Origin: Folioceros fuciformis
Taxonomy: Eukaryota
Assembly: GCA_049999805.1 (NCBI GenBank)
Contig: JBNGIO010003332.1
Location: 1 to 56,943 of the forward strand
Length of the DNA: 56,943 bases
Reading direction: 5' to 3'
Positions within the stretch are counted from its first letter, which is position 1; the number at the start of each line of letters is the position of its first letter. The notes beneath the pieces were generated by a model. It made no database searches and was not told the DNA's origin. It worked only from the letters and a program-made list of their open reading frames with translations. Shown in pieces: positions 1 to 56,943 of the stretch. The position numbers and the translations under genes were made by a program.

Positions 1-2297
1 CTGCGAGATCTGCGACCTTCTTGGCTGCTGCCTCTACGGGCGGCGGTGGAGGAGCCCTTCCTGACGCTGCTACTGCTACTGCTGCTGCTTCAGCTGGGCC
101 AGGACAGACAGAGCTCGCCGAAGCCGCTGATGCTGGTGCCGCGGGGGCCAGGCCGTCATCTGGCGAGCCTGCACTCCTCCGCGCGGCTCCGCAGCTATTG
201 ACCGCCTCGCGAGCGCGGAGAGAGACGAAATGCGGGACGAGTCCCGCCAGCCAGGCGCCCGGGGTAGCGCTCCTCACGGTCCCCGAGCGGGGCTACAGCG
301 GTGGCAGGCGCGTCTTATCCGGTGGCCCTCCCCCTACACGGCTGCCAGCCCGCGCCAGCCCACTCCCGGCTGCGGCAGCACAAGATCTTCCCTCGGGCGG
401 CACGCAGGGCGAGGCGGTGGCCGGGCGCCGCTAGCCCTGCCGCTGCCACCGCTCCACCGAGCCACCCCGGGGGGGGGGGCGGCCTCCAGTGGACACCACA
501 CTCCCCCTTCCCCTTGGCTGTCAAGGGTGAATTCCTCCTTACCTCGGGTAAAACTTGGTAAATACCGACATCCTGTACGAGACATGCATAGGCGGTAACA
601 GTGTCGGTAAGGTGTAACAGCGACTGGCAGACGGGGGTCGACTGTGCGCTAACTTAACGGAGACGGTGGGTGGGGCCATCGCATAGCATGGGTTTGGTGC
701 CATTCACAGCACAAAAGCGACCACCATGTGCTGTGCCCAGTCGCTTTATGGCACTCCCGTTACTTAAATTTAGCCCTCCCCTCCACTGCGCACCATCCGT
801 GCCCGCACGTGCGGGATCGCCACCTGCTGTAGCCCGTGCCGCTCCCGAGGCGACCGCACGACCGCCTCGACCCGCCCACTTCTCCGGTTCTGCCGGTCTC
901 GCCACGGTGGCCATGATGGACTCCACCCGACCCGACCCGGCCCGGCCCGGCCCGGCACGGAGATACTCCATCGTCCCACTCCCAGTCCCAGTCCAAACAA
1001 CTTTGTCTCCATCGACCTCCTTAATCGAAACACAAGCTTTGCTCCCACCTTGGATCAACCTTCTAAACGGCACACTGGTGACAGAGTCCTTCCCGTTGAA
1101 GATAAGTGCGGAGTGTTACGCGTCTGCCAGATGCTTCCATGCAAGAAAGCACGAGACTATGGAAAGGATGAGAACAAGCTAAGATAGGACGCACCCACGA
1201 GGAACTTGGAGATGCGCAGCGCAATGCAATGCAGAAGAAAGGTTGTAGATGCATGTACGTAACCATGGTAGTGTAGGCGATGCGATGAGCTGGTCTTGTG
1301 TTTACAAGATGCTGGGTGGGGCGTGAAGGGCCCGGCCCAGCGGACGCAAGCCAAGCCAGGTCAAGTCCAGGCCTGCCCCATTCCGCCCTTCCCCTCCAAC
1401 ACGATACGATTATTTCAATAAAACATGGACCAAATCTCGTGCTCCAAGGACACGAAGGCCGAGCCGACGCCTAGGGCCAAGGTACACCGAGTACAACACT
1501 CTACGGATGGTGATGTCAGGCTGGCTGCACCGGATCCGGAAGCGCGTAGGGGTATATGTATTATGTAACTAGCCTGGGCTGGTGATTGACAGGACATGAC
1601 ATTTGGACAAATTTGATCCAGCAGACCCACCACCAACCTGCCAGGAGGGGCGCTGGCCTGGTCTGGCCTGGCCTGGCCAAGTCAGTGGGGACGGCACAGC
1701 CATGTTCCTTCTCGCGACTCTGGGAGCCAAGATATTTGCGCGAACATTGGAGAAGACGTCGCGTTGCTTGTTGGGTTTTTGCGCGTCCGCGAAAGTGCAG
1801 AGCTATGTGTTGAAGGAGGACGATGCCTTGAGGGAGCCTGGACCCGCTCGCACGCTCTTAGATGTGTTCACCAGCCTTCCTGACATACCGCACCCGCACA
1901 TAAAACACAGTTTAGGAATCCGAACGGCGTTTGCCGTACGTGATGGGAGAAGGACGTGACGGGCATGGCAGCCAAATTCTCCTGCTGCTGAGGTGGCTGG
2001 AAGACGATGTTAATCACTGATGGACCTGCACTGGACAATCACGACCGAGCCAATCTCGGCCCAACCCGTCGTGCTCTTGAAGAGCCAGTCGAAGACGCCG
2101 ACGGCTGAGGCTGAATTCACTTTTCCATCCCTCTTGGGTGATGGAGCAGCGATGTGGCAACCGGTGGGATAGGGTGCCTCGGCTGCCACACCCACCGGAT
2201 TCGGGGGAATGAGGCATGCTTGTGGGTGGCGTCTACGCTAGGAGGGCAGCTGGGTTGCGATCCATGCTGCCGAACAATCCATGGTTTGGCTGATGCG

Positions 2298-10313: not shown

Positions 10314-13300
10314 ATGCTGAGCGTGCTGCGGGTGCATTTGCCATCCGACATTCCCATTGCCGGTTGCGAGCTCACTCCCTATGTGCTACTGCGCAAATCG
10401 GATGGTACTGTCACAACCGATGACATTTCCGAGTCCGCTCCCGTCGATGGTCACTACCTGCGTTGTCGATGGTGCGTTTTTGGCCCCCTTGTTTCGAGAT
10501 TAGCGCTCCCCTTGTCTGTCGGCCCGTCGGTCGAGCGCGATTTCCGGCGCGCCGACCTAGCTGCTGCTCCTTCCTCCTAGGAAATTGTAGCCCTCAAGCC
10601 CGTACCCTAGTGGGGTGAGGTGAGTGACGTGACGTTCTCTTCTGACGGGACCGATGTTGCCGGTCTCACCTGTGCAGGTATAGGATACAGAGCGACAAAA
10701 GGGGGGCGGTGTGCAGTGTGCACCCTGCAGAGCAAGCGACGCTGCAATGTTTGTCGTGCGTCAAGTTGAAGTTGGCTGTGAGCAAAAGTTATCATTGCAG
10801 TACCAAATGCTTTTCGGACGCATGGAGGCTTCACCGGACTATGCACGAACGTGCTGCCACCGCGGCACGGGAGAACGGGGAGGAGGAGGATAACCCCTAT
10901 GTCAGGTTCAACAACACGGGTGGCAGCATCACCACTGCACCGCCTCCCGCGGTGCTTAGTAATGGCTCCCGCTTTTCCTCTGAACAGGGTGGCAATGGGG
11001 AAACGTGGTTTGAGGTGGGGCAGGGGAAAACATACACACCCACAGCTGAGGATGTGGGCTATGTTCTCAAATTGGAGTGCGCAGCCGTGGACAAACTAAC
11101 AGGAATAGCATCCGCTCCTGCCCACGCCGTACTCACCGCCCGGGTTATACCTGCTCCGTCTCCTACCCCACGGCGCATGGTTTATGTCAATCCGGGAGCA
11201 GATGGTACTGCAGTAGGAGTTGATGTGGAGCCACGGGGTGGACTACCTGGGACCTTTACAGTGTTATCTTACAATGTTTTGTCCGATATCTATGCCACCA
11301 GTGAGATGTACAGTTATTGTCCTCCGTGGGCTCTTTCTTGGGCGTATCGCAGGCAGAATTTACTGCGGGAGATAATTGGTTACCGAGCTGATATCTTGTG
11401 CCTTCAGGAGGTAGCAATTGTGCTTACAGTGTACATGACGGTTTCTGTGAACATCTCTGGTTGCAGACCCGTTTTTGAGCCAGATCGTTCTCTTCTCATG
11501 TTGGTGCAGGTTCAGAGTAATCACTTCGAAGACTTTTTCCGCCCAGAGTTGGACAAACATGGCTACACTGCTGTGTACAAGAAGAAGACTTCAGAGGTGC
11601 TGTAGAATACCTTGATGCTCTCTGAGCATCTTACCAAAGGCTGTATGTGTCTGAGGACTCCACTTATTGGACTTAACGAGCTCATCATGCTGGCCTCCAG
11701 GTTTTTGTAGGCTCTTCTTACATCATTGATGGTTGTGCCACTTTCTACAAACGTGATCGGTTTCAGCTTGTAAAAAAATATGAGGTACTCTTTGCTTATC
11801 CCTGAAGAGTACGGGGTGGTACTCTGACGTGGTTCGTTGTGGACATGGTTGTTTGATTCCATTCCATGTTGTGTTGTGAGCAGTCGTGTAACCTGGTTCC
11901 TGCGGTGATGCAGGTGGAATTCAACAAGGCTGCACAGTCGCTGTCTGATGCCCTTGTGCCCAGTGCATCTAAGAAGGCAGCTCTTAGTCGATTGCTCAAG
12001 GTTAGTTAGGTGTACTGAAGGGTGTTAACACGTTTCATGGTCGATGATCTCATGGATTAATCCTAAACCACCCGTTGGGCCAGCCTGACTTACGTGCCGC
12101 TTGGTGTCCAGGATAATGTGGCTCTTATCGTGGTGTTGGAGGCTAAAGAAGCGGTCCATGGACAGGATTCCGCTTCCGTGGGAGGGAAAAGACAGCTGCT
12201 TTGTGTGGTGAGTCGTTTACAGCTTTTAAGACATAAGAAGGAAGCATTGATAAGCTTTAGGCTGAAGAGAGCTCGTGCTTCATTGACTTTCACAGACTCT
12301 TAAGTTTTCGCGTAGGCGAGTCTGCATCTAAAAAATTTATTTAGGGTCTGATGGAGTAGAGAAACGAGCAGCATTTAAAGGCCGACCGTTTACATGTTTT
12401 TAAAATTTTCTCAGGCCAACACGCACATTCATGCGAACCCGGAGTTGAAAGATGTGAAGATTTGGCAGGTATCGTTTTGGTGTTGTTATCTGTTGTTTTG
12501 AGAGCCATGTAAGATGACACCAGATGAAAAACTCAAAACCTTACGGGCTCATGACGTATAGGTCCACACCCTATTGAAGGGACTGGAGAAGATAGCAGCG
12601 AGTGCTGATATACCGATGCTCGTAGCCGGCGACTTCAACTCAATTCCCGGAAGGTTGGTCTTAAGAGGTCATTGAGACGGCAAACTTTTGCGTCTTTTGG
12701 TTCAAAGAACACGCCCGGCATGGACGTGTCTGTTGATCAAGAATGTTTTACGATTGTGGGTGGCAGTGCTCCCCACTCACTTCTGAAGTCGGGAAGGGTA
12801 GATCCTGCCCACCCGGAACTACAAACTGATCCGCTTGGTATCCTCCGTCCTTCGAGCAAGCTCTGCCACTCGCTGCCTCTGGTAAGCTGTTGAGCCGAGG
12901 TCGTCTGCAGAGTAGCAGTGGAGGTCTGCAGTCTTGTAATATTTGTTTTCCTCGCATTTTGTCTCCAGGTTAGTGCGTATTCAGGTCTTTGTAGGCTTGG
13001 AAGTTCCACTCCTGCTCTAGAGCGGCAGCGTCGGCGAATGGAGCAACTAAGTCACGAGCCTCTCTTCACGAATTGTACGCGAGACTTTTTGGGGACCCTC
13101 GACTATATCTTTTACACAGGTAGGCGGCTTGCCAAAACTACTCTCTGTTCCCTGAAAACTGGTCTGACTTTCTGTTAGAGAAAAACCACTCAAGTAAATT
13201 TGGCTTGTTATGTGATGCAGCGGATTCCTTGGCCGTGGATTCCGTTTTGGAGCTGCTGGACGAGGAGAGTCTGCGGAAGGACACTGCCCTGCCATCTCCA

Positions 13301-26052: not shown

Positions 26053-29000
26053 GCTTCAATTGTGAAGGTATTGATAGTATTCATTCTATAGCAAGAGGCT
26101 GAAATTCAAGAGATACAATAGATGGAGACAAGCATGAAGAGACATTGAGACACGCTCAGTGGAGAGTTTTGGAGGCAAGAACTTCACACTATGAAAGTTA
26201 AAAGATGAAGATGCTTCTCACTGAGAGAGGAGTATGAAAATTCGTTGACAAGGGCCTCGAAGACACACCCAGCGAAGGAGACCTTGATAAGGATGGACAT
26301 GCATTAGCTGCAATCCTTCTTAATGTGTCTAATGTCATACTCTCTCAATTGAGTGAGTGTGCAACGTCGGAGAAGGCATGGACTACCCTTTGCTATATGT
26401 CCGAAAAACGAAGTATGGTGAGTGAGATGTTGTTGGAGCAACAACTGTCCAACTTCAAGATGGTTGAAGGGGACACGATTCAACAGCATGTCAACAAGTT
26501 GAAGAACTTGGTTGATCAAATGCAAGCTGCAGACATCAAATCTTCTAAAGGAAGGATTATTATGGTGTTATTGAATAGTTTACCATCTGTGTACATGCAA
26601 TTTGTGTTGTCTTTTAGGACATCAGCAACGATATATTCAAGTGATAAACAAGCGACGATAGAAGAGGTGGTTGGGTTGCTTCTACAAGACAAGCTGGTGA
26701 ATTCATTCAAGAATGAACACAAATATGACTTGGTACATTTTTCGAGGAAAGGAAAGTCACAAGGGAAGACCCCATATGACAACTCAAGTGAAGGATCAAA
26801 GGAGAAAGTTACAAAGAAAAAGACATGGGGTACTTGCCATTACTATAAGAAACCTAACCATTATGCACAAGACTGCAGGACAAGATTGGTTGACTTGAAG
26901 AAGGGAAAATAGTCACAAGCCAATTAAGTAAGTGAGCAGGAAGAAAATCTTTTTTCTGCTTCAACAATAGAGACAGTGGGAGATCGCTCATCAAGGAAGG
27001 ATGAGAGTCTATACCTAGAGTTTGGAGCATCTCAACACATTACCTACAATCAACCTTGGATCTCAAGCTACAAAGAAATACCGATAGGGCATAAGGTGGC
27101 GCTTGGTGATAACAGGTCACACAAGATCAAAGGGAAAGGTGTCATAAAGGTAAAACTACCTGGTAAAAAGTCCAAAGGTACTATAAAGGATGTACATCTT
27201 GTACCTAGTTTTGCTAAAAATCTTCTTTCTATAGCTAGAATTATTGGCCGAGTAAATGAGATTGTGTTCAATTCAAAAGGATGTTGCATCCAACCCGAAC
27301 AACCTAAATCACATAATGTTACAGTGATAGCCAAAGGTATTCGGGAAGGCAATCTCTACAAGTTGTGTGCTTTTGTAGGAGATGAAGAAGATTACGCAAC
27401 TATGTCAAGTTCACCTCCCAGCTAAGGATCTTTAAGTCTATGGCATCAACATCTAGGCCATACAAACATAGATACCCTTAAATTGATGTAGTCCAAGCAT
27501 TTGTTTAAGGGTTTAAGTTTCGATATTAAAGACACAGGTGATTATCAACCATGTTAAGCTTGTATCATGGGCAAGCTTCACCGCTCTCAGTTCCCTAAGA
27601 TCGGGGCTCGTCAAGCTAGTAAGAAGCTAGAGCTTGTACGCACCGATGTGTGTGGACTCATGAAGAATCCTACTCATGGTGGATCATGCTATATTCTAGT
27701 CTTTGTGCATGACTTCATAAAAAGGAGTTGGACTTATCTCTTGAAGGAGAAGTCCAAGGTTTTCAACATATTTAAGACATGGAGAGTCTTGGTTGAAAAG
27801 GAGAATGGAGAATGCTTAAAGACTTTGAGAAGTTACAATGGAGAAGAGTACATCTCTTCTCAATTTAAAAGCTTTTGCAAGAAGTGTGGAATTTGAAAAC
27901 AATTCACAATTCCTCATACGCCACAACAAAATGGAGTAGCAAGAGCGCAAGCTTAGAAGTCTGGTGGAAGCAGCAAAGTGTATGCTCCATCGCAGTGCAT
28001 TGGAAGTACATTTTTGTGGAGAGGCTACTTTTACAGCCACTTACATTTTGAACAGAGTTCCAACTAAGGCTGAGCTTGGAATGACACCAGAAGAGACATG
28101 GACTGACATCAAACCTATTGTCAATTACTTTAGGATTTTTAGTTTTGTAGTTTATGCTCATGTTCTGAAGCAAAATCAAACCAAATGGGATCCTAAAGGC
28201 ATGCAATGCATCATGCGTGGATACTCTGATGAGGAATCGAGGAAAGAGGAATCGGTTATATAACCCTTCTACGAAAAAAATCATCTTTAGTAGAGATATT
28301 GTCTTTGATGAAGTATTAGATCCTCCCAAAACAATGGGAGAAACTCCCGTAGTTATCACAGAGTATAAGGAGGTATACGAGACACCTCTAGATACACCAT
28401 TTGTTTCCTCTCCTCATGTAGATAAGACTTCTGATCTTGAGGATAGATCCCTTTCTGATAATGTAGAGAATATACATAGTGTTGCAGACATTGACACAGA
28501 ACCTAATCCAACCAACCCAGCCTACACCAAATCTCAGGAGATTAACAGTAGGAAACCTTCAAGAAAGCTTTTGGAGTCAATGAATGCATGTGACATTGAA
28601 ATGGCTTTGTTAGTGGATGTTGATGAGCCACAAACCTTGAAGGAAGCATTGGAAGGACCAAAGGCTAAGGAGTGGAGAGCAGTTCTAGATAGTGAATATA
28701 ATTCACTTATAAAAAATAAGACCTGGAAAATCATTCCTCTTCCTCCAGGAAAAAAGTGCATAGGATCAAAATGGGTATTCAAGATTAAACATAACGCTGA
28801 TGGAAGCATTGAGCGTTATTAGGCAAGAATGGTAGGGAAATGATATACACAAGTGCCAAGTATTGATTACATAGACACTTTCTCTCATGTTGCCAAGATA
28901 ACATCCATCCGAGTACTCTTAGCAATAGCAGCAACCATGGATTTGGAGATCCATCACATGGATGTCCAAACATGATTTTTTTATAGAGATTTGGAAGAAG

Positions 29001-29830: not shown

Positions 29831-30537
29831 TTTTTAATAGACAAGTCATCTATGTCAGATATTGATACGATCAAATGTACACATGATGGCCTTTAATTAA
29901 ACATGTCCGATGCTAATAGCGATCTCGAAAGGCGCTTTGGATGAAGACCTTGCTCATGCTGAGCATCGTTCCAATATCAGCAAAACCGGTTTTCATCTTT
30001 CCGTCCCTGCTGACCACTTCATCCACGACGTCTGAGGTTCTCTTGAGACAAGTCCTGCACCTCGACTCGCCAACACCAGCTAAACCGCTAAGAATGCCTT
30101 GCGCAGCTGAAGACAATCTGCCAGGAGAACTACAATATTTCATCTGTTCACGTCGCCGACACTTGCGGAGGACGCATCTTGAAATTCACCATTTCACTAC
30201 AGGATACGAAAGGCACTGAGGCAGAAGCTTTGAGGGTGGTGCATTGCGTTTTCCAATGCTGAATGCAGCTGCTTTGGCTTGCGATCCCCGCAGCGGTAGG
30301 GTTCTGGGGACTCGACACAGGAGTTCACTGGGGGGAATGTCTTGTGCCGAAAACGTCTGCTTGAATGCGGATCTAAGGTTAAAAGAGATCCGAAATGGAC
30401 GCAGAGAAGGTCCTCGTGTATTCCGACTACTGGGCTTTCTGACCGAAATCGAAATGCTCCACTTTACAATTAACTGTACTTTAAGTGCTTTCTCGCCATT
30501 GAAACACGCTCCAAAGCCATAGGCGCCTGATGGAGCC

Positions 30538-33500
30538 ATGGCTGCCTGGAGCGTGGCAATCGAGTCACGCGCAAGACAAGGGCAACCGTATCCTCTGAGG
30601 GAACAGCTTCCCTGGACCAAAGAACTTAGAGGGGTGACCGTTAGTGGTGTAGGTGCTTCCTCGCACGCAACTGTGATTTCCAGGAACCAGCCGAAGGCGA
30701 ACATCGAAGCTACGAGCTGCAGCACCCCTGCAGGAGAGCCAGTTCGGGGCCGTGCCCACGAGCTGGGAGACGGTGACGCTCGTAAGATTGGGCCTAAACC
30801 CTATGAAATTGGCGTGACTCCTGAAACCGTGAGCAGGCTATGTGAGCAGGGTCGTGTGACAGAGGCGGTTGAGGCTTTGGGTATCCTTGCGCAGATAAGG
30901 AGGAGTTGTGTTTCGAGATCTCTTTTTCACGGTGTTGTGAGGAAATGTGTGATGAAGAGGGATATTGTTTTAGGTCGGAGAGTCCATGCCTTAATGGTGA
31001 GTACGGGGTGCGAGTCGGATACATTCCTGTGCAATCACATCCTGCGAATGTATGCTTCACACCGAAGGTTGCAAGATGCGATGGATGTGTTTGCAATGGT
31101 CGCTATACCTGATGCCTTCATGTGGTCGTCCATCATTTCTGCGCATGTAAAGTATGGAGAAGAGAAGCAGGCCATACAGCTGTATCGTCGGATGCGGGGG
31201 TCCAAAGTGAAGCCAGATGGTCATGTCTTTGTGGCGGCCCTTCAAGCTTGTGCAAGGGGATTGGACTTGGAAGCTGGACAACAGGTGCATGCAGATGTGG
31301 TGGCCAGTGGGGTTGAGCCTGATTTGTTTGTCTGCAGTAGCTTGGTGGACATGTATGCAAAGTGCGGGAGCCTGGAAGATGCTCAGCAAGTCTTTGATGG
31401 ACTCTGTCGGAAGGATGTGGTAACATGGAATGCCATGATAGCAGGGTACTCGCAGCGGGGCATGGGCCAGGAAGCCCTGCGATTGTACAACACTATGCGA
31501 GCCGAGATGGCTACACCTGATTCTGTGACGTTTGTGTCCCTCTTGCAGGCATGTGCATGTGTGGGCGCCCTAGCTCTGGAGACGGGGAAGGAAATCCATG
31601 CACATATAATAGAGCGAGGGCTACAAGCCCACGTCTTGGTAGCAAACAGTTTGGTAAACATGTATGTAAAGTGTGGCAGTGTGAACGATGCTCAGGGAGT
31701 ATTTGATGGAATGAGTCAGAAAGATATGCTGACGTGGAATGCCATAATATGTGGCTACTCCCGGCAGGGCATGGTCCAGGAAGCCCTTCACGTTTACAGT
31801 GCCATGCAAGGCGAGGGCATCACTGTACCCCATCCAATGACATTTGTTCACCTCCTGAATGCATGTGCCAGTGTGGGCACTGCAGGTTTGGAGATAGGTA
31901 AGCAGCTTCACACACAAATTAGGGAACAAGGACACCAAGCTGATGTGGTTGTAGCCAACAGTTTGGTCGACATGTATGCCAAGTGCGGCAGCCTAGAGGA
32001 TGCTCACAGTGTGTTTGACGGACTTCATAAGAAAGATGTGGTGACGTGGACTGCTCTTATCGGAGGGTATTCCCAGCAGGGCATGGGCCAGGAAGCCCTT
32101 CAACTCTACAGAGATATGGAAGGAGAAGGAATAGTTGCCCCCGACTTGGTGACATTTGTGTGCCTTCTACAGGCATGTGCAAGTGTAGGCATCGGAGCCT
32201 TGGAGGTGGGCAAGCAGCTTCATGCACAAATCAGTAAAAGAGGAGATCAATCTGGTGCAGTTTTGGCCAACAGTTTGGTAAACATGTATGCGAAGTGTGG
32301 CAGCATGGAGGATGCTCAGCAAGTGTTTGACGGACTTGGTCACAAAGATGTGGTGACGTGGACCTCTCTAATTGCAGGGTATTCTCAGCAGGGGATGGGA
32401 CAGGAAGCCATCCATCTCTACAGGCGGATGCAAGCTGGAGGCATGGCGGTACCTAATTCTGTGACTTTCGTCTGCCTCCTGCAGGCATGTGCAAGCTTAG
32501 GAGCCCCAGCTTTGGAGATAGGGAAACAGATTCATGGGAATATTAGAGACTTAGGAAATGAAGCTGATGCATTTGTAGCCAGCAGCTTGGTAAGCATGTA
32601 TGCCAAGTGTGGCAGTATGGAGGATGCTCGGAGATTGTTTGATGGACTTGATAGAAAAAATGTCGTCGTGTGGAATGCCATGATTGCAGGATGTTCCCAG
32701 CAGGGTATGAACCTGGAAGCCCTTCGCCTCTACAATGCTATGCAAGAAGAGGGCATCACTAAACCCAATTCGGTGACAATTGCATGCCTCCTGCAAGCAT
32801 GTGCTGGTGTGGGCACCCCGGCTTTGGAGATGGGGAAGTTGTTTCATTCACAAATTAGAGAACAGGGACATCAGACTGATGTACGTCTAGCCAACAGTTT
32901 GGTGAACATGTATGCCAAGTGTGGCAGCTTGGAAGACGCTCAGAGAGTATTTGATGGCCTTGGTCAAAAAGATGTGGTGACCTGGACGGCCCTAATTGGG
33001 GGGTATTCTCAGGAGGGCAGAGGGGAGGAAGCTCTCAGTCTTTACCGTGTCATGAACGAAGAAAGCATCTCTGTACCTAACCCTGTGACATTTGTTTGCC
33101 TCCTGCAGGCATGTTCAAATGTGGGCACCCAAGCTTTGGAGATAGGAAAGCAGCTTCATGTGCAAATTAGAGATGGCGGACATCAGGCTGATTTGTTTGT
33201 AGCCAACAGTTTGATCAACATGTATGCTAAGTGTGGCAGCCTGGAGGGCGCGCAAAGAGTGTTTGATGGGTTGGGTGAAAAAGATGTTGTGACGTGGACT
33301 GCTCTAATTGCAGGGTATTCCGAGCAGGGCATGAGCCAGGAAGCCCTTCGGCTTTACAGTGTCATGCTAGAAGGAGGCACCGCTGTACCTAATTCCCTGA
33401 CATTTTTGTTCCTCCTGCAGGCATGTTCAAATTTGGCAGCCCTGCATCTTGGAAGGCAGGTGCATGCACAGATTGAAGAGCAAAGGCTTGAAACTGATCT

Positions 33501-34191
33501 GTTTATAGCCGCCAGTTTGATAAACATGTATGGAAAGTGTGGGTGCATGCTGGATGCACAGCAGGTGTTTGATTCGTTGCCTGAGAGAGACGTCTTCGTC
33601 TGGAGCGCATTGATTGCAGGCTACTCTTCCCAAGGGGACAGTAAAGCAGTGTTTGACTTGGTTGAGAGAATGAGAGCGGATGGTATCCAGCCAGTGGCCA
33701 TCACGTGTCTGAGTATTCTAACTGTATGTTGTCATGCAGGTCTGGTGAAGAAGGGGAGGGAGTACTTCGCCGCCATGAGCAAACAGTACAGCATCACTCC
33801 CACGGTGGAGCACTACACATGTATGGCAGATATCCTGTGTCGTGCAGGCCTACTTGATGAGGCTTTAGGTTTGGTAAGAGCGATGCCTGTAGTGTCAAAT
33901 GCTGCAGTCTGGCACACGCTGCTGGGTGCTTGTCAAAAATTGGGCAATGTGGATGTAGCACGCTATGCTTTCGACGAAGCAGTGAAGATGGACAAGAAAG
34001 ATACTGCAGCATATGCATTAATGTTCAATATATACAATGGCGCTCAGATGTGGGAGCAGGCACAGGAGATACAGGTCGCGAGGATAAAAATGAGGGCGTG
34101 GAAACAGCCGGGTCTGAGTTGGTGGACAGACACAAACGGGCTGGTGCACAGTTTTTTGGTCGGGCATGAAAGCAATCTTTCACGACAATAA
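30538..34191 (+). CDS. PLS-class PPR protein with extended (LL-type) L motifs and a truncated WW-type C-terminal domain, organellar RNA-editing factor
   Basis: 1217-aa intronless ORF with ~105-aa triplets (L motifs such as TFVCLLQACASVGIGALEVGKQLHAQI carry a 2-aa insert), E1/E2, and an end at AWKQPGLSWWTDTNGLVHSFLVGHESNLSRQ*. Confidence 0.95.
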   Translation: MAAWSVAIESRARQGQPYPLREQLPWTKELRGVTVSGVGASSHATVISRNQPKANIEATSCSTPAGEPVRGRAHELGDGDARKIGPKPYEIGVTPETVSRLCEQGRVTEAVEALGILAQIRRSCVSRSLFHGVVRKCVMKRDIVLGRRVHALMVSTGCESDTFLCNHILRMYASHRRLQDAMDVFAMVAIPDAFMWSSIISAHVKYGEEKQAIQLYRRMRGSKVKPDGHVFVAALQACARGLDLEAGQQVHADVVASGVEPDLFVCSSLVDMYAKCGSLEDAQQVFDGLCRKDVVTWNAMIAGYSQRGMGQEALRLYNTMRAEMATPDSVTFVSLLQACACVGALALETGKEIHAHIIERGLQAHVLVANSLVNMYVKCGSVNDAQGVFDGMSQKDMLTWNAIICGYSRQGMVQEALHVYSAMQGEGITVPHPMTFVHLLNACASVGTAGLEIGKQLHTQIREQGHQADVVVANSLVDMYAKCGSLEDAHSVFDGLHKKDVVTWTALIGGYSQQGMGQEALQLYRDMEGEGIVAPDLVTFVCLLQACASVGIGALEVGKQLHAQISKRGDQSGAVLANSLVNMYAKCGSMEDAQQVFDGLGHKDVVTWTSLIAGYSQQGMGQEAIHLYRRMQAGGMAVPNSVTFVCLLQACASLGAPALEIGKQIHGNIRDLGNEADAFVASSLVSMYAKCGSMEDARRLFDGLDRKNVVVWNAMIAGCSQQGMNLEALRLYNAMQEEGITKPNSVTIACLLQACAGVGTPALEMGKLFHSQIREQGHQTDVRLANSLVNMYAKCGSLEDAQRVFDGLGQKDVVTWTALIGGYSQEGRGEEALSLYRVMNEESISVPNPVTFVCLLQACSNVGTQALEIGKQLHVQIRDGGHQADLFVANSLINMYAKCGSLEGAQRVFDGLGEKDVVTWTALIAGYSEQGMSQEALRLYSVMLEGGTAVPNSLTFLFLLQACSNLAALHLGRQVHAQIEEQRLETDLFIAASLINMYGKCGCMLDAQQVFDSLPERDVFVWSALIAGYSSQGDSKAVFDLVERMRADGIQPVAITCLSILTVCCHAGLVKKGREYFAAMSKQYSITPTVEHYTCMADILCRAGLLDEALGLVRAMPVVSNAAVWHTLLGACQKLGNVDVARYAFDEAVKMDKKDTAAYALMFNIYNGAQMWEQAQEIQVARIKMRAWKQPGLSWWTDTNGLVHSFLVGHESNLSRQ

Positions 34192-48689: not shown

Positions 48690-50023
48690 AGCTAATCTTA
48701 CTCTACATTCCTTGGCATAATGATTAGGTTTTTTGCAATAGTGGCAAGTACCCCACATCTTTATCTTTGTCCCTTTTTCCTTTTGCTCCTTCTTCGAAAT
48801 TGGCTTGTGAGGACTTCCCTTGTGTTCTTCCCTTCATTAAAAAGAACACCAAGTTGTCATTTTCTTTCATGAATGAATTTTCTACATCCTCTTGCAGAAG
48901 CAACCTAACCACCTCATTCAACTTTGCTGGTTTGTCGCTTTGATGCATTGCTATTGCCGTTCTAAAGGCTAACACAAATTGCTTGTATGTCGATGGTAAG
49001 CTACTCAACAACACCACAATTATCTTTCCTTCGGATGGATTGATATCCATTGCCTTCATTTGATTCACCAAGTTTTTCCGTGTTGTTGAATGGTGTTTCC
49101 TTCAACCATCTTGAAGTTATCAAATTGTTGCCCCAACAACATCTCATTCACCATGCTTCTTTTTTCGTACGTGTTGCGAAGGGTGATCCACGCCTCCTTC
49201 GATGTTGCACACTCACTCAACTGACAGAGTACATCGTCTGACTCGTTGAGAAGGATTGTTGCTAACGCTCGTCCATCCTTATCAAGGTCTCGTTCGGTAG
49301 GTGTGTCTTCAAGACCCTTGTAGACGAATTTCCATACTCCTCTCTAGATGAGGAGCATCTTCATTTTCAATTTCCACACTTTGAAGTTCTTGCTTCCAAG
49401 TTCTTTCTCTACTTGACATGTCTCGAGATGACGTATCCTCATGCTCGTTGATGCCATCTTCTGTGTGCACTTACTTCACACTTAAGCTATAGAAGGATTA
49501 CTATCAAGGCTTTCACAATTGCAACAAGCTCAAGGCTAAGAACTATAATTACACAGAAACTCTCACAAGCATAAGAGTTTTGCTATTACATACAAGTTTT
49601 CACAAACATAAAAGCCCCCAACTATTAAAGACTAGGAAATCTACATGGCACTAGTAAGTGGCTGCAATACCATATTAGAAGTAGAGGATCTAGGCATTTA
49701 AAAAGAACATACAATGTTCCAACAATGTAGGACATACAATTGCGAAGCAAACTTCTAAAAACAAGATAATACACATGTCTACACTACTCATCCTCCGTAG
49801 CTAAGGCCTTTATAAGGCTCTTGGTCTTTCATGCTATTGGTCCTTGACTTGCCCCCTCACCTACTTGGCTTGACCTTGGCTTGCCTCTTCAAAAAGATGC
49901 TCCCTAGTCTTTATCTAGAAGATGCTCTTTTATTCTTATCCAGAAAAATTATTTTAGATCACTTTTTATGTAACTATTTTAAAGCACTCTTTGTTAACTT
50001 ATTTTGATAAATCATTGCTAACA
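48690..50023 (-). mobile_element. Truncated Copia element (probable LTR + leader + gag), same family as 25681-29830
   Basis: Gag MVNQMKAMDINPSEGKIIVVLLSSLPSTYKQFVLAFRT aligns with 26325-26912, and the leaders align. The minus strand starts TGTTAG at 50023 with a TATA-like cttataaagg; the LTR-like segment ends near 49714. Confidence 0.8.
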
Positions 50024-52437
50024 AGTTTCACACTCCTCTAAATGCTGTATCCATGTGGTTGGAGCGTGTGGTCATAACCTGTGGATATCTGAAGACGTTA
50101 ACGTTGACGATGGAGAGTTCGATCTTTTCCGGAGCATGATATCGGAATTGAAACCAGCCTTGCTTGGTTCGAATTCCGAACGTGTTTCAGTACTGTTGCC
50201 GGGGCAAGAGTTGGCTTCTCATATCTGCTTGTGTCCGTGGATCAGGACATTGTCTAGTCATATACGCCGAGCAGATCTCAGCGAGCTGCTCCCTCTTCCT
50301 TCTCACACCTGGGAGGGGGAAGGGCGTGCTCTTGTACGTTTCTGCACCTTACAGGATGGGACGACGTGAAATCGCGCTGCATCGTCATCGTCCCGCGCAC
50401 CGCTCCAAGAAGGAAGGGATGAACGCGTGCGCTTTTCCCTTGCTTGGAGCCCTCCATCCCTGGCGCGACGGATGCCATGCCATCCCCTCGGCAGCAACAA
50501 TTGGCCAGAGAGTCCAGAGTTCAACCACTTCCTCAGTTTCGATTAAGTCATCTTCCCCTTGTCCACGTTTGTCGGGATCCGCGAGAGGGTTAACGGCAGT
50601 AGTGGGAAGGAGGGGACATCGTTTCGCCTTTCGAAGCTGCAATTTGTCTCCGCTGGTGTAAAAGTTTCGCATAACTGTCCAGAAGGCACACGTCAACCTC
50701 CAAGACCTCGTTATCCAGCGCATCCTCTTTCAACAATCGCCAAAACCCTGAAGTGAATGCAGCTGCCAAGCCCTTACCCTTGTGTAAGCTTCACCTCTGG
50801 CCTCCACAACGCAAGCAAAAGTAAAATGGTTACTCAAAATGAGGCCCTCCATCTACAAGAGACGGAGGAAACCTCCTTTTCCCACTAGTGGGATCCATGT
50901 TATTGTCCATCTTCAAAATGTGGACTCCATTTGGACGGAAAGCTGAGAACGGAATTGGACAGTCTAACCTTTCCCTCCCTGCTGGTCGATTCAAGAATTT
51001 TTGAGGTTCAACAGTGTTCAGGTCCTCATCACACAGACAAACCCCTCGGACACCAGCCAATCGGGCAACCTTGGATTCCCTGTGCAGCTTAAGAATGCAA
51101 TCCGACATGGGAACTATGATATCTGCACGTACGCTAATGAATGTTGTTAGCCAGTGAGGCATCGAACATCTTGAATCTCATATCCACCATTTCGCTTCTC
51201 ATATGCAGCCGTCGAAAGTCAATGAAGCCCACATGGTCATCATCCCGCGAATTGTCCCAGGATGGGAAGGAAAGGATTGGGGCTCGGATTCTCCCTAGTG
51301 GGAACCTTCCTCTCCGGCGAGGAGAGACCCCGGCATCTCCTAATGCTCAGTGTTCAATTGGAATCCAGAACTCCCGCCGTCAGTGGCAGGCAGCCCTCCT
51401 TCAACGTCCAGGCTTAAAGGATTGTATCAAGGAGCGACAACGGGAGCACTTTGCCTCCCAAGCTCCAGTCTGTCTTGATAGATTGTAACGGTGAAGAAGC
51501 AATTCAAATAGTCGTAGTATCAGTCCTCCGTCCCTAGAGCCGTTGCGCATGGCCGTAACGTCGAAGAGGAATTCGTATCAAGTAATTCCAAACGCCGCAT
51601 CTGACATTGAATTGTTCTTGCGCTTCCAAGTGGGGTTTCACACCCTCTAGATGCCTTGACAATCTGGCGGAGCGTGAACATGACTGTTGGATATCAAGCG
51701 TAGCAGACGGTGACGATAGAGCTTACATTTACTGTTGTCGGAACATGCGATCGGAATTGAAACTACGGTCGTGTCTTTTTGTAAACTGCTTCACTCGTTT
51801 CGTTTTGGATCAGGATCGTGTCGTGTTGATCGGGGAGCATTGCATTTCGCAAGGCTGCAAGGCTTTTCCATTTGCTGGCCCAGGGATCTGGATTGGGGAT
51901 CGGCTTGGGCATCCCTTGTATTCAAACCCGCGTTTCTATCTCCCTAATGCAGACATAGTGGGCCCGTCGTTACCAAACTAGTGATAACCAAGTAGACGTA
52001 GTGGCATATCCGCAATTTCTGAGAGATCTGTGCAAGCCATCCATCGCCATGTTTTGATTGATTCCGCAACATTCCCACACGATGCGCTCGAGGACTTCAT
52101 CGATTTCCGGGGGGCAGTGCGATTTGGAGTCCCAAAGATTGAAGACCAAGCAGAGAGTCGGGTTTAACAGGCCAAAGTGATCAAGCAAAATTGAAATCTA
52201 TCCACTGATCATATTCCAAACCGTCGGGATGGTCTCGTGCTGAGTTCCTTCTACTCTGTACTAGATGTCAAACGTGAACAAGCTTGAGGCATCCGAGTGA
52301 CGACAGGAATACAGGCACCAAATTAAAGCGCACATAAGTACATAGTCAGATCTGGAGTCGCACATAGGTATCCTCAGATTTGGGAGCTCCGCCATTCACT
52401 CTTTGAGAATGTGCAAAAACGGTATCAATGCCTGGGG

Positions 52438-53268
52438 CTATGGGCGACGGGCGATGGGGATGTTGACATGGACCACTTGGTCCCTTCCGAGGGAGATAGG
52501 ACCGTCAAGACCAAAAGGCCTTCGATTTGTGATACTTCGCAGGTGTATCAGAAACATACGAACGCACTGGATGATATGCCGCCTGCGTCGATGATGAAGC
52601 AGGAGGCCGCCGGTCGTGGCCGTCCTCATCCGAGCTTCTGCTTCCTCAATTACAGACATGTAATCCAGGCAGCGCCAGCAGCCGCAGACGAGCGGATACT
52701 CTCTGTTCAAGTAATTGCTCAAGCGCCTAAAACGTTGATCTCTGGCTACCTCTCCGCCACGCTGTTCCTCTTGAATAACAGTCAAGTACTCCTCCGCCAG
52801 GCGTGTTAGCCCCACGTTCGTCCTCAGTTGGCTACCCCTGATGTATTCGAAAAGGAAGCGGAATGCCTCCAGCTGCAAACAGGAGAGGTGATGGTACCTA
52901 TTAGACTCCATTGTATACCTCCGACATACCTGGACTAAGTCACCTACACCACGTTCTTCAGATGAATCCAAAGATGGCGATCCCACGGGTTTTCTTGCAA
53001 GAAAGCCGGCTGCAGTGGATTCAATGTGGTAGAAATATTAGCATATACATGTACTCACCCACTGCGCGGCCGATACTCTTCGATCTGATGTGATTCTTTG
53101 AAACCACAGGCACAGCCTCTGCAGCTTCCTGAGGAAAACCCATTCACCGTAGACAATCCAGCAAAACATCCGTCGAAATGTTATGACGAATGGATCGTCA
53201 TCGTACCTGCGATCATTTAAGAATCCGAACAATGGATGTGGCCGAGGCCAATACTGAGGTTGCGGCAT
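52438..53268 (-). CDS. Orphan two-exon protein, paralog A (214 aa, CxCxxC motif)
   Basis: Exon 1 53268-53059 (MPQPQYWPRPHPLFGFLND...VSAAQW), phase-0 intron GTGAGT...TTTGCAG (186 nt), exon 2 52872-52438 (LEAFRF...CGCWRCLDY...ARRP*). Same structure is intact in paralog B. Confidence 0.7.
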
Positions 53269-54539
53269 CGATACTCCTTGATCGGCAGCAATTGGAGCGT
53301 AGAGTTCAGCCGATTCTCCTTGTCCAAGACGCTTAATGTGGAGTGGCAAGAAGAAGGGGAAGGGGATCCAATCGCAGAGCGCGGTTCGCTTCCCGAGCTG
53401 CAGCCTGCAATCATGAATCCTTCAACACTGAAGAAACAATCTCAAGCGTCCTACGCGGTTGACTTACACACATTATACAGCATATACTCCGTCCCAAGAG
53501 CCGTTGCACTTGTCCGTTGCAGAGCTGGGGATGAGATTAGATCAATCGCAGCCTGCCCAGTATCAATTTGCAAGCATCGGTCAGCAGTGAGCTACTCTTG
53601 CGCGTTCCATTTCCTTGAACAGGGTTTCACACTTTCCAAGATATCTTGTCCATGTGGCTGGAGCGTGAACATGACCATCTGGATGTCGAACAGACGCTTC
53701 GACTTCCCCAGGCTGTAGCACATACTTGGAGGCAAATCTTACAGTGAGTGCTCGTTCTCTCGGCATTCAGATTCTCCCGGTTAGTTAGTGTTTCAGATTT
53801 TTCTAGATGCCTTGTCCATCTGGCTGGAGCGTGTCACGACTAGTGGATATGTAACACAGGTTAACGTTGACGACAAGCTAGGAGGTGCTGTTGAATCTTT
53901 TGTGGGAGCATGGTATCGGAATAGGGACCACTGGCATTGGTTCCAATTCCGAAGCTGCTTCAGTAGTGCTGCCAAGGCATGGGTTGGCTCATCATATCTG
54001 CTTGTTTCGCTAGAATGATGAGGACCTTGTCGACTATACATACACACTGGTTCCAAGAACAACCAAACAGGTCATGCAGAATAGAATCGACATCCAGAAC
54101 CAAATCTAGGATTACCCAAATTTCTGGTTCATCCTGGTTGATTTATTCCGCAACCTTCCCAGACGATGCGCTCGAGGACTTCATCTATTCCCGAGGGGAA
54201 GAGTCCGATTTGGAGTCCCAAAGAGCGAAATGTCGAAGAGAAAGTAGAAAGGCGGGTTTAACAGGCCAAAATAATCGTAAATATGATCACGAAAATTGAA
54301 ATCTATCCACAGATAGTGTTCCGTATGTCGGGATGGTCTCGTGTTGATTTGATTCTACTCTTCACTTGCTGTCAAGTGTGATTTCGAGTGACGACATGCG
54401 CGTGACGACAGGAACACATGCACCAAATTAAAGCGCACACAGGTACATATTCAGATCGAGTCACACATAGGTATCCAGAGATCTGGGAGTGCCTGCATTC
54501 ATTCTTTGAGAATGCGCACAAACGGTAGCGATCCCTAGC

Positions 54540-55340
54540 CTAATCGGAAAACGAGCTCCGGGCGACCACTAAGTCCCTTCGGCGGCAGGTACGATGGGGA
54601 ACGGAACGTAGCCGTGAGATCATTCGCAGTTCTTCCAGAAAGAAGAAAATGCAGTGGATGATCCACCGCCTTGCTGGATAATCCTGGGCGATGCCGGAGG
54701 TGGCCGTCCTCATGCAAGCTCTGGCTTGCTCAATTTCAGACATGTAATCCAGGCAGCGGATGCAGCTGCAGGTGGTCGAATACTCTCTGTTTACGAAATC
54801 ATACAAGCGCCAAAGAGCTTCATCTCTGGCTACCGCTCCACCACGCTGTTCCTCTTGGATAACAGTCAAGTACTCCCTCTCCAAGAATGCTTTCGCCATT
54901 TGAATCCTCTCTAGGCCATCCCCGGCGAAACCCAAAACGAAGCTGAGTGCTGCGTCCTGCAAACAGGAGAGGTGATAGTACCTGTTAGATTTCGTTGTAC
55001 ACCTACCACAAACCTGGACTAAATCACGTATACCACATTCTTCAGCTGAATCTCAAGATGCCAATCCCACAGGCTTTCTTGCAAGAAAGCCTGCTGCAGC
55101 GGAATCAATGTGGTGGAAATATTAGCATATTCATGTACTCACCCACTGCGCGGTCGATACTCTTCGATCTAATGAAATAAATACAAACCACTTGCACAAT
55201 TTGTCCAGCTTCCTGACGAAACGCCATTGATGCAAGGCTACGACGACCATCATCTGTCGGAATGCTCTGATGACTGGATCGGCATCGTACCTGGGATCAT
55301 TCAAGAAGAAGAACGGGGGATGTGTCCCAGATTCCGCCAT
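54540..55340 (-). CDS. Orphan two-exon protein, paralog B (204 aa, CxCxxC motif)
   Basis: Exon 1 55340-55143 (MAESGTHPPFFFLND...VSTAQW), phase-0 intron GTGAGT...TTTGCAG (186 nt), exon 2 54956-54540 (DAALSF...CSCIRCLDY...SFSD*). Confidence 0.7.
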
Positions 55341-56551
55341 CGATACTCCTCAATCGGTACCAATTGGATTGCAAGCCTTTTATATAGGCCAGGAAGACTC
55401 CACTAATGTAGTACTAGAATGGCCACTCTATAGCTATCGGTGTTACCATGCTAGCATGCTTGGTAACCTTTAACCTTAGAATCTATTATTTCTTAAGAAA
55501 CAACGTCAAGCGTCCTAGTAGGTCAAGGTTCACCCAGGACATTCACTCCGTTCCAGGTGTCGTTGCATCTGTCCGTTGCAGAACAGGGGATGGGATTGGA
55601 TCAATCCTAGCATTGTCCAGTGTCAATTTACAAGCATCGGACAGCAATGAGCTACTCTTGCGCGTTCCATTTCTTTGAAGAGGGTTTCACACTTTCCTAG
55701 ATGGCTTGTCGTCTGGCTGGAGCGTGAACATCACCCGTTGGATATCTTACAGACCCTTCGACTTCTCCATGCTACATACAGTACTTGTACTTGCCTCACG
55801 GTGAGGTGCTCGTGCTCTCGCATCCAGATTCTCCTCGCCAGCTAGGGTTTCAGACTCTTCTAGATGCCTCGTCCATCTGGCTGGAGCGTGACACGACTAG
55901 CTATATCTAACACACGTTAACGTGGAGGACAAGCTGCTTGGTGTGCTGGTGAAATGTTTAGTCGCAGCATGGTATCGGAATTGGGACCAAGCAAGGAACA
56001 AGAGAGCAAGGTTAGGGTATAAGGTAATTCATCGCGCAATAGGGCATAAGGTATTCCATAAGCTGCTTAACAACGAATGCGATGTGCAAGATTCATTCGA
56101 CATGATATGAGGGTGGGAAAATGAAAGATCGATTCAAGAAAGTCTGAGGTTGTAGAGTGTTCTATGCCCTCATTGGACATACAAACCCCTCGCACACCCT
56201 CGTCAATCAGGCAACCTCGGATTCCTTACGCAGCTTAAGACGTGGGAACTAGGATATCACGCGAATCGTCCCATGAAGGGAAGGAAAGGGTGGGGGGCTC
56301 GGATGCTCCTAGTGGGAGCTCTTCTGTGTAGGGGGAGATGTCCCGCGGCTCCTATTCCGGATCCGTCCCGACCTCCTAGTGCGTGGTGTGGATTATGATT
56401 CGATCAAGTTCCACAGAGTTATCTCATGGATATCTACTGTACATGATCAACCAGCAGCGGAACGGTAAGAAGAGCCAAGTCCTGTTCTGTGCATATTGTA
56501 GTACGTCTTGGAGGAATTGAGCGACTGACAGAGGAGCTGTGGTAAGACATA

Positions 56552-56761
56552 CTACAACCAAGAATGCTTCAGCCTAGCCTGCACACTTGTCTGGTTGTCG
56601 GCAAGACGTAAAACTCGTGTATGCGCAGTGTTCCCGAGATTTATTTGAGTGTTCAAGTGAAAGGGATGGATGCTTTGAGTCATGAAATCCATGTCCAGAA
56701 TGAAATTGCGAGCACACACACTGAGACTCATTGGAAGTGTGCAAGGAAGGTTAGGAAGCAA
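56552..56761 (-). mobile_element. Possible decayed Ty3/Gypsy protease fragment
   Basis: SVCARNF...DF...RVLRLADNQ resembles the 'DSGAxxNF...VRLADG' retropepsin pattern; very degenerate. Confidence 0.3.
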
Positions 56762-56943
56762 TGTTCATGAAGTCACTATGCCAGTACTGTTGGTGATGGA
56801 GCACCTTTAAAGAGTAGTCGGTGTTGCCGGCAGACACGCTTGTAAGAATTCGTAACACGACACCTAGGGTTAAAACACCTGTGGTGCTGAAGCTCAATGC
56901 GGAGGTGGTGGAGACGGTGATGACGCTGCACCGGGTGGGCTGA

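Follow-up and report, generated by a model that had tools for sequence, protein, structure and literature searches.

A tandem pair of two-exon genes

The DNA analyzed here, referred to throughout as the window, is a stretch of 56,943 nucleotides of contig JBNGIO010003332.1 from Folioceros fuciformis; it is nuclear DNA of a land plant, and carries on its minus strand two related genes, A and B, which are the subject of this study. Each gene consists of two coding exons separated by an intron of 186 nt. In gene A, exon 1 (53059..53268) provides 70 codons from the ATG, the intron (52873..53058; GTGAGT...TTTGCAG) is of the GT..AG type and in phase 0, and exon 2 (52438..52872) provides 144 codons and the stop, for a predicted product of 214 aa. 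In gene B, exon 1 (55143..55340) provides 66 codons, the GT..AG intron occupies 54957..55142, and exon 2 (54540..54956) provides 138 codons and the stop, for a predicted product of 204 aa. Both introns begin with GTGAGT, and at their ends a pyrimidine tract precedes CAG. A preliminary description of this DNA had reported two intact two-exon open reading frames (ORFs) of 214 and 204 aa with identically placed 186-nt introns, and all of these parts were found where it had placed them, on the minus strand. Its remark that a list of ORFs misses the genes is only partly right, as the exon 2 ORFs do appear in the plain list (182 and 140 aa).

Comparison of the window with itself (blastn, MAFFT) shows that the genes belong to a head-to-tail duplication on the minus strand, with units of approximately 1.9 kb each at 52054..53930 (unit A) and 54138..55989 (unit B), which are 73.5% identical across 1918 alignment columns. 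The duplicated unit exceeds the span of 52438..55340 noted earlier: it comprises the transcript and some 350 bp upstream, so that the untranslated regions (UTRs) and the upstream DNA are duplicated as well.

Transcription and splicing

Among eight entries listed in a search for sequencing runs, three match the locus, none of them on record as RNA: two DNA runs of the probable source sample, one of which is denoted X1, and a run from a different study, X3, labelled 'RNA?'. We treated X3 as RNA because its contigs carry both splice joints. Gene A is represented by one spliced X3 contig of 1423 nt covering 51976..53584 on the minus strand, in which 51976-52872 is joined to 53059-53584 with 0 mismatches, so that the intron is skipped exactly; gene B is likewise represented by one contig of 1348 nt covering 54112..55645 on the minus strand, in which 54112-54955 is joined to 55142-55645 (the cut may equally be 1 nt further), again with 0 mismatches. 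Each contig omits exactly 186 nt, with ends that read CT..AC on the plus strand, and thus GT..AG on the minus strand. The DNA run X1 is continuous through both introns and contains no exon-exon joint. Since the X3 contigs join the exons while X1 keeps the introns, we conclude that both genes are transcribed and that their transcripts are spliced at the predicted sites; spliced transcripts had been named in the preliminary description as something to look for, and the X3 contigs confirm the junctions of both genes. Interpretation was confined to stretches covered by X3. Two further runs from the study of X3, derived from other organisms (X5 and X6), gave no match at a likeness of at least 80% over 49500-56943.

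The contigs place the 5'UTR of gene A at 53269..53584 and its 3'UTR at 51976..52437 (both on the minus strand); for the two genes the 5'UTRs measure approximately 305-316 nt and the 3'UTRs 428-462 nt, and the ORFs of 214 and 204 aa are the longest in their respective transcripts. The 5'UTR of gene A holds four upstream ATGs, among them that of a four-codon upstream ORF conserved in gene B: it lies at the 5' end of both contigs and reads MLAN* in A (53577-53563) and MLVN* in B (near 55637). The start ATG of the main frame and its context, GGAGTATCGATG, are aligned and conserved in both copies.

Maintenance of the reading frame

When the aligned exons are read in all six frames, the frame of the genes is the sole one that is free of stops in both copies. 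When 193 random substitutions with the observed spectrum were introduced, this frame survived in 12 of 3000 trials with A as the starting sequence and in 7 of 3000 with B; random change thus leaves it open in only 0.2-0.4% of trials. Of the four gaps in the alignment of the coding sequence (CDS), three have lengths divisible by three (12, 3 and 6 nt), versus 2 of 22 gaps in non-coding sequence (Fisher p = 0.014); the fourth CDS gap, of 10 nt, is located about ten codons before the stop. The open frame, the in-frame gaps and the conserved ATG context, all of them properties of the aligned sequences, argue for selection to keep a predicted protein. Two other candidate frames were considered and set aside. 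An antisense ORF over exon 2 contains 3-5 stops in the aligned pair, in which the gene frame alone is open; a plus-strand ORF of approximately 60 codons across the intron is open in both copies, with 10/10/4 differences by codon position and no sign of coding.

The same observations bear on the hypothesis that the transcripts are spliced long non-coding RNAs, whose open frames are incidental and whose ORFs are untranslated. The length of the UTRs and the presence of upstream ATGs are compatible with it, and the support for coding is at the level of sequences and transcripts. Against it, neither frame has been lost despite 193 differences, indels within the CDS preserve the register, the surroundings of the ATG are conserved, no frame other than that of the genes is free of stops, and the two products share invariant peptide cores in which only 23 of 90 codons are replaced. 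We regard this hypothesis as very improbable.

Divergence along the duplicated unit

Between the two introns, a gapless alignment shows 25 differences in 186 positions (86.6% identity), which corresponds to a proportion of differing sites (p-distance) of 0.134; the estimate of roughly 25 substitutions in a gapless alignment made in the preliminary description was therefore exact. The 3' flank, which had likewise been described as conserved, has 67 differences in 381 aligned sites, up to position 52054 (p-distance 0.176 for the 3'UTR so delimited, 0.205 and 0.147 for its two halves). In the region upstream of the transcripts, the presumed promoter (53585..53930 for gene A and 55646..55989 for gene B, minus strand), the p-distance is 0.185 over 341 sites, with values of 0.178 and 0.192 in the two halves. 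Within the 5'UTR, it is 0.183 in the distal part and 0.148 in the 27 nt before the ATG, while the middle part (53296-53480) reaches 0.497 and has 23 gap columns. The exons have higher values than the intron: exon 1 reaches 0.273 and exon 2 as a whole 0.312, with 0.281 in codons 1-115 and 0.459 in the tail.

Altogether 184 of 614 exon sites differ, compared with 25 of 186 intron sites (Fisher p = 4e-6). This contrast persists when sites in a CpG context are left out (p = 1.7e-5), which rules out CpG decay as its sole cause, and also when transversions alone are counted (p = 1.8e-6). The exons hold a neutral reference of their own: at 4-fold degenerate sites in codons whose first two bases are unchanged, 5 of 33 positions differ (0.152), a proportion indistinguishable from that of the intron (Fisher p = 0.79). 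Similarly, third positions differ in 11 of 93 codons whose first two bases match, and 12 of 94 codons that specify an identical amino acid carry a synonymous change. Because the value of 0.134 matches those of the 4-fold sites, the 3'UTR and the upstream region, the intron is not unusually conserved and can serve as a neutral yardstick. Thus the earlier proposition of an intron better conserved than parts of the exons stands for the comparison with the exons themselves (0.134 versus 0.273 and 0.312), and falls for the comparison with the other non-coding parts of the unit. As judged from this alignment, it is the exons that are outliers, and it is their replacement sites that stand out against the neutral level of the unit.

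The middle part of the 5'UTR (53296-53480 in A, 55368-55539 in B) is nearly unalignable, while the sequences on both sides of it are 82-85% identical. In gene B it contains a TATA-like sequence, CTATATAAAAGG, about 40 nt before the ATG, together with a GGTTACC...GGTAAC palindrome.

The introns were also considered as possible RNA elements. No Rfam family was matched at E values up to 1 over 49500-56943, and the predicted folds of the two introns are no more stable than those of shuffled sequences (z = +0.41 and −0.40); a structured intronic RNA, such as a small nucleolar RNA, a microRNA or a member of another Rfam family, was rejected on these grounds. Changes on both sides of a predicted base pair occur in 1 of 48 pairs, a count that with two sequences is uninformative as to covariation. 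A 24-nt palindrome, CAGGCTTTCTTGCAAGAAAGCCTG, is perfect in the intron of gene B (55070-55093) and imperfect in that of gene A (52986-53009).

Tests of selection on the coding sequences

With the Nei-Gojobori method (NG86) applied to 201 codons, the nonsynonymous divergence (dN) is 0.457 and the synonymous divergence (dS) 0.295, for a ratio (ω) of 1.55 (95% interval by bootstrap 1.10-2.22; 0.7% of the replicates at or below 1). A maximum-likelihood estimate was obtained with a purpose-written pairwise Goldman-Yang model and a likelihood-ratio test (LRT) against ω = 1: it gave ω = 1.95 (p = 0.0065) with F3x4 and 2.06 (p = 0.0025) with F1x4 codon frequencies, rising to 2.34-2.46 (p = 0.0016-0.0007) upon removal of the poorly aligned C-terminal tail; exon 2 alone yielded an LRT value of 6.19 with F1x4. 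The comparison can be made independently of dS by using the divergence pooled over intron, 3'UTR and upstream region (K = 0.194): dN is 2.36 times this value, and exceeded it in all 2000 of 2000 bootstraps (Fisher p = 1.8e-12). These are the outcomes that the preliminary description had set as a check, namely a dN/dS above 1 (1.55 by NG86, 1.95-2.06 by maximum likelihood) and an exon divergence approximately twice that of the intron.

In most coding sequences differences are in excess at third codon positions. This pair displays the reverse, with 84, 60 and 49 differences at positions 1, 2 and 3 (p = 0.007). The replacements are clustered (runs test z = −2.99), and fall in approximately six blocks separated by invariant cores; the divergent blocks and the conserved cores that had been pointed out earlier (EYLTVIQEEQRGG and CxCxRCLDYMS) were indeed found in both proteins. 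Counted within the variable blocks alone, codon positions 1, 2 and 3 hold 66, 45 and 36 differences (p = 0.008). Six of seven variable blocks have 56-71% nucleotide identity in register, versus approximately 14-48% at shifted offsets; the block of the C-terminal tail has 41% in register. Because identity peaks at offset 0, the blocks are homologous rather than imported or frameshifted, and compensated frameshifts are ruled out as their source.

On these measures the pair belongs to the operational class of positively selected duplicates, that is, genes with ω above 1, with dN above the local neutral yardstick, and expressed with the frame kept, the class being defined here at the level of the two aligned sequences.

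Copy number and possible gene conversion

A search with tblastn for a third coding copy in the window returned none at E < 0.01, the best stray match having E = 0.021. In the DNA run X1, examined at a likeness of at least 80%, depth is flat (12.1-12.6) in 23 of the 26 bins between 50994 and 56222, with a small extra cover solely at 54729-54977 and 55227-55724; the flat depth means that no close third copy is visible, while donors less than 80% alike would escape this count.

These data are relevant to the idea that the duplication is old, that intron, UTRs and exon cores have been repeatedly homogenized by gene conversion, and that the divergent blocks are either unconverted or derived from a distant third paralogue. 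Such a mosaic would agree with the patchy profile of divergence, with the unalignable block in the 5'UTR, and with a tendency of third positions next to two unchanged bases to differ more in variable blocks (6 of 27) than in conserved ones (5 of 66; p = 0.073). It is at odds with the order of differences by codon position in the variable blocks, since in old sequence, whether constrained or drifting, position 3 should be at least as high as the others; moreover, ω is already above 1 for the whole gene, without any choice of blocks, and X1 gives no sign of a close third copy. Overall we consider this mosaic quite unlikely. Patchy conversion had been raised earlier as a source of the intron similarity; conversion of the intron alone is not needed, because the divergence of the intron equals that of the exon 4-fold sites, the 3'UTR and the upstream region.

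The predicted proteins and their relatives

The predicted products have masses of 25.8 kDa (A) and 24.0 kDa (B), isoelectric points of 10.4 and 8.9, and an extreme composition, rich in Arg and poor in Lys (Arg:Lys 34:1 in A and 26:4 in B). The highest Kyte-Doolittle hydropathy over 19 aa is 1.13 in A (residue 28) and 1.12 in B (residue 164). The N-termini are neither hydrophobic nor of the basic and hydroxylated kind: the first 30 residues have a net charge of −1, with 1-2 Ser/Thr. Judged by hydropathy and N-terminal composition, the proteins are not predicted to be secreted, to insert into membranes or to be imported by organelles. There are 6-7 cysteines per protein, five of which are invariant: one in exon 1 and four in exon 2 (C63, C65, C68 and C103), including a C-x-C-x-x-C motif. 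The invariant cores read FLNDxRYDxDP, RKLxxLCxWF, DRRVSxAQW, EYLTVIQEEQRGGxVARD, NREY, CxCxRCLDYMS and MRTAT. An AlphaFold2 model of exon 2, built from the two-row alignment, displays five helices at low confidence (pLDDT 42.8, pTM 0.32), and the proteins are probably all-helical.

All homology searches were carried out with single exons as queries, so that matches requiring both exons could be missed. Within this scope, none of the four exon peptides matched Pfam-A at gathering score, the one listed hit, EAD7, scoring 13.1 bits where the cut-off is 32 (E = 0.087). Exon 2 of B, compared exhaustively by phmmer with 1.84 billion representatives, had 0 matches; in word-seeded searches exon 2 of A, set against proteins of 79-252 aa, and exon 1 of A, set against longer proteins, had 0 as well; and there were 0 matches among the sequences of the PDB. 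The earlier statement that no known family is recognizable agrees with all of these searches. As a control, the first of two pentatricopeptide repeat (PPR) ORFs in the window produced 5546 plant hits at E ≤ 1e-20 among 8000 scored candidates, with best identities of 45-51%, in the lycophyte Diphasiastrum complanatum, and none near-identical; since this control finds plant homologues, plant proteomes are represented in the protein collection.

Two specific leads were followed and abandoned. A SET/post-SET relationship suggested by the ESM Atlas had a score of 0.85, with 112 of 256 shared features, below the threshold of 0.9, and there is no Pfam SET match. A likeness of the C-x-C...DY motif to the C-terminus of DYW-type deaminases was not borne out, as no DYW profile is among the listed matches at E values up to 10.

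Inside the window, the exon 1 peptide RPHPLFGFLNDR (53200-53238, minus strand) resembles the antisense of exon 2 (52621-52656, plus strand) at 9 of 12 residues, with E = 0.021 within the window and a weaker resemblance in B; this may be chance or the trace of an inverted repeat.

Surroundings of the pair

An element of approximately 75 nt, with the core GATGCCTTGTCCATCTGGCTGGAGCGTG on the plus strand, occurs in six copies within 6 kb (50025-50097, 51633-51695, 53621-53696, 53787-53856, 55681-55754 and 55844-55916). Two copies lie upstream of each gene, the conserved upstream region of gene B thus holding the same two as that of gene A, and the remaining two are solo, lacking a gene behind them. 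In gene A the proximal copy is closely followed downstream by the 5' end of the X3 contig (53584), so the element may belong to the promoter; alternatively, it may be a relic of older units. The outer flanks of the pair are themselves related, with 74-84% identity between 50986-51123 and 56129-56258 and between 51242-51309 and 56256-56324. From these alignments, the related flanks suggest that the gene pair is contained in an older duplication of approximately 5.1 kb, and together with the six copies of the element they hint at earlier rounds of duplication in the surroundings of the pair.

A short segment of about 55 nt at 50799-50854 is matched at 80-90% by many contigs with consistent loose ends on both sides, and reaches a bin depth of 218 in the DNA run, versus approximately 12 elsewhere, and a depth of 440 in X3. 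Probably this is a fragment of some element or gene family that is expressed and present in multiple copies.

Farther away on the plus strand, the window contains two intronless ORFs for PLS-class PPR proteins with E/E+ motifs, one of 964 aa at 2142-5033, which is the control mentioned above, and one of 1222 aa at 30523-34188. Fragments of copia-type gag and of reverse transcriptase/SH3-like sequence are present at 26238-26909 and 28169-28819 (plus strand), in a tract of low GC content (0.37-0.40), and an ORF at 10646-11602 (plus strand) combines a zf-C6H2 finger with the start of an endonuclease/exonuclease/phosphatase domain.

Interpretation of the divergence

We have observed a defined gene structure, splicing of both transcripts, an open frame, an excess of replacements, and a lack of detectable relatives. 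The explanation that we hold to be probable, if well short of secure, is that A and B stem from a recent tandem duplication of a lineage-restricted coding gene, are both transcribed and spliced, and have had their proteins driven apart by positive selection. In this scenario the neutral sites (intron, 3'UTR, upstream region and 4-fold sites) would have accumulated approximately 0.15-0.19 substitutions per site since the duplication, while sites that change amino acids would have accumulated approximately 0.46, in blocks between invariant cores. The cores would form a scaffold, possibly one that binds metal through its cysteines, and the variable helices would provide a recognition surface undergoing retuning in both copies, either to acquire a new specificity after duplication or in an arms race with a fast-evolving partner. 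The preference for first codon positions and the many swaps of hydrophobic residues fit this picture of helix surfaces being retuned on a preserved scaffold.

Several observations weigh against this explanation. When codons that touch a CpG are dropped (118 of 201 kept), ω is 1.36, in the same direction and non-significant (Fisher p = 0.29); because the proteins hold many Arg (CGN) codons, CpG decay adds to dN. The NG86 value of dS is higher than the intron divergence (p = 0.018): this may come from multiple hits in heavily replaced codons or from a real difference between exon and intron, and it leaves room for a mutational effect specific to exons, or for some homogenization of the non-coding parts. 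The middle block of the 5'UTR is non-coding, and has diverged as much as the exons or more. The 5'UTRs contain several upstream ATGs (4 in A, 6 in B), the Arg:Lys ratio of the products is one also seen in young or spurious ORFs, and the predicted fold is of low confidence. The evidence for splicing consists of contigs from one run, from which tissue, strand, level and true transcript ends cannot be read. Neither the source genome nor any close relative of it is represented in the protein collections, so that 'orphan' signifies here a gene with no relative among the proteomes searched. Finally, with two sequences the changes can neither be polarized nor assigned to sites, to a copy or to a period of time: a test of this kind indicates positive selection on amino acid change rather than ongoing diversifying selection specifically, and a burst following duplication is not separable from it. 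The excess of amino acid change with a preserved frame, from which diversifying selection had been suggested in the preliminary description, is therefore upheld, while its ongoing character is more than two sequences can specify.

A number of these points, namely the lack of homologues among the proteomes searched, the fold, the composition, the upstream ATGs, the non-significant CpG-free ω and the excess of dS over intron divergence, would also be in keeping with a young, de novo-like pair of ORFs that evolve without constraint (ω close to 1), next to non-coding parts that are constrained or homogenized; the protein would then have undergone no adaptive evolution, and what matters would be the RNA or its regulation. 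An unconstrained frame, however, would be expected to close, as it did in nearly all simulations, and its gaps would not fall in multiples of three so much more often than those elsewhere in the unit. The clean synonymous sites (5/33 and 11/93) match the intron and set the neutral level at approximately 0.15, with dN well above it; the bias towards first codon positions is not predicted by neutral decay; and the intron has neither an Rfam match nor an excess of folding stability. On balance we judge this alternative unlikely, and retain positive selection on a young coding pair as the preferred explanation.

As to the function that such selection would act upon, a role in genetic conflict is a reasonable guess, and the likeness to meiotic driver/antidote, allorecognition or defence loci put forward in the preliminary description is an analogy. 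A more definite version of it would be a conflict locus of a seed-free land plant, made up of a protein family without relatives, in which the products may act as a killer/protector or self/non-self pair in spores or gametophytes, and in which the two co-expressed paralogues themselves or an antagonist drive matched changes; we consider this version, which also rests on analogy, distinctly improbable. Under it, the near-absence of lysine would fit an escape from ubiquitin-dependent removal.

Relation to known systems

Introns that are more alike than exons among paralogues are an already known pattern; the protein family is new to the databases searched. The closest parallel is provided by the three-finger toxin genes of snake venoms, for which the account of 'ASSET' reports intron segments with more than 85% identity and exon segments with 12.5-50% (PMC2474615); accelerated evolution of venom toxin families is also the subject of other reports (PMC2711939, PMC6062510). 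Common to both systems, on that account, are paralogue introns more alike than parts of the exons (here 0.134 versus 0.273 and 0.312) and conserved cysteines or segments that frame short, radically changed segments, and the venom pattern is read there as surface retuning on a fixed scaffold (PMC2474615), which is what we propose for the pair. Unlike the toxins, the proteins of the pair have no hydrophobic N-terminus or signal peptide, and with 204-214 aa and 6-7 Cys they are not small disulfide-rich secreted proteins; there is no sequence relation between the two groups, and the pair belongs to a land plant, with two copies known. The mode of change also differs from the exchange of segments, as six of the seven variable blocks remain in register at 56-71% DNA identity and have been altered by point substitution.

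The wtf proteins, products of poison-antidote meiotic drivers of fission yeast, are multi-pass membrane proteins, and their genes give rise to two overlapping transcripts, the shorter of which starts inside intron 1. The proteins of the pair lack predicted membrane segments, with a hydropathy maximum over 19 aa of 1.13, and have no sequence similarity to wtf (no hits of any kind). As for a second transcript starting from the intron, only fully spliced contigs are present here, in one run, and contigs cannot show starts; the intron of the pair requires no special conservation to explain the data. What the two systems share, given the features reported for wtf, is that they are lineage-restricted, fast-diversifying and duplicated, with introns and without relatives outside their clade (PMC13160552, PMC7032740, PMC6283613, 10.1101/2022.06.24.497463). 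A pollen killer of Arabidopsis with its antidote APOK3 exemplifies species-restricted conflict genes of plants at structurally variable loci, and thus a candidate class for a fast-evolving tandem pair (10.1101/2021.09.08.459474). The pair differs from it in having neither a sequence relation nor an organelle-targeting signature, and in being known here from sequence and contigs, not from genetics.

Orphan genes usually show relaxed constraint, which is a weaker signal than that found here: the pair stands apart from typical orphans by a gene-wide ω significantly greater than 1, calibrated by its own intron and UTRs. In other respects it resembles the lineage-specific genes and tandem clusters of plants, which are likewise reported to have no outside homologues, to be short, with few exons, to arise in tandem and to evolve fast (PMC11876429, PMC9131075).

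The same pattern of divergence would be expected, by analogy, for driver, recognition and defence genes. A gene-wide dN/dS significantly greater than 1 is uncommon, and where it occurs the genes usually have a part in conflict, recognition or reproduction. This pair combines it with an internal neutral yardstick (intron, UTRs and promoter), with splicing of both copies, and with membership in a family without relatives. It is also a worked example of the fact that an intron more conserved than its exons can mean accelerated exons rather than a constrained intron. Should the pair turn out to be a driver, or a locus of incompatibility or immunity, a new family would be defined by it; otherwise it would be an ordinary young, fast-diverging duplicate. 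For functional studies it offers a candidate that is small and well defined, from a plant lineage with few characterized fast-evolving genes.

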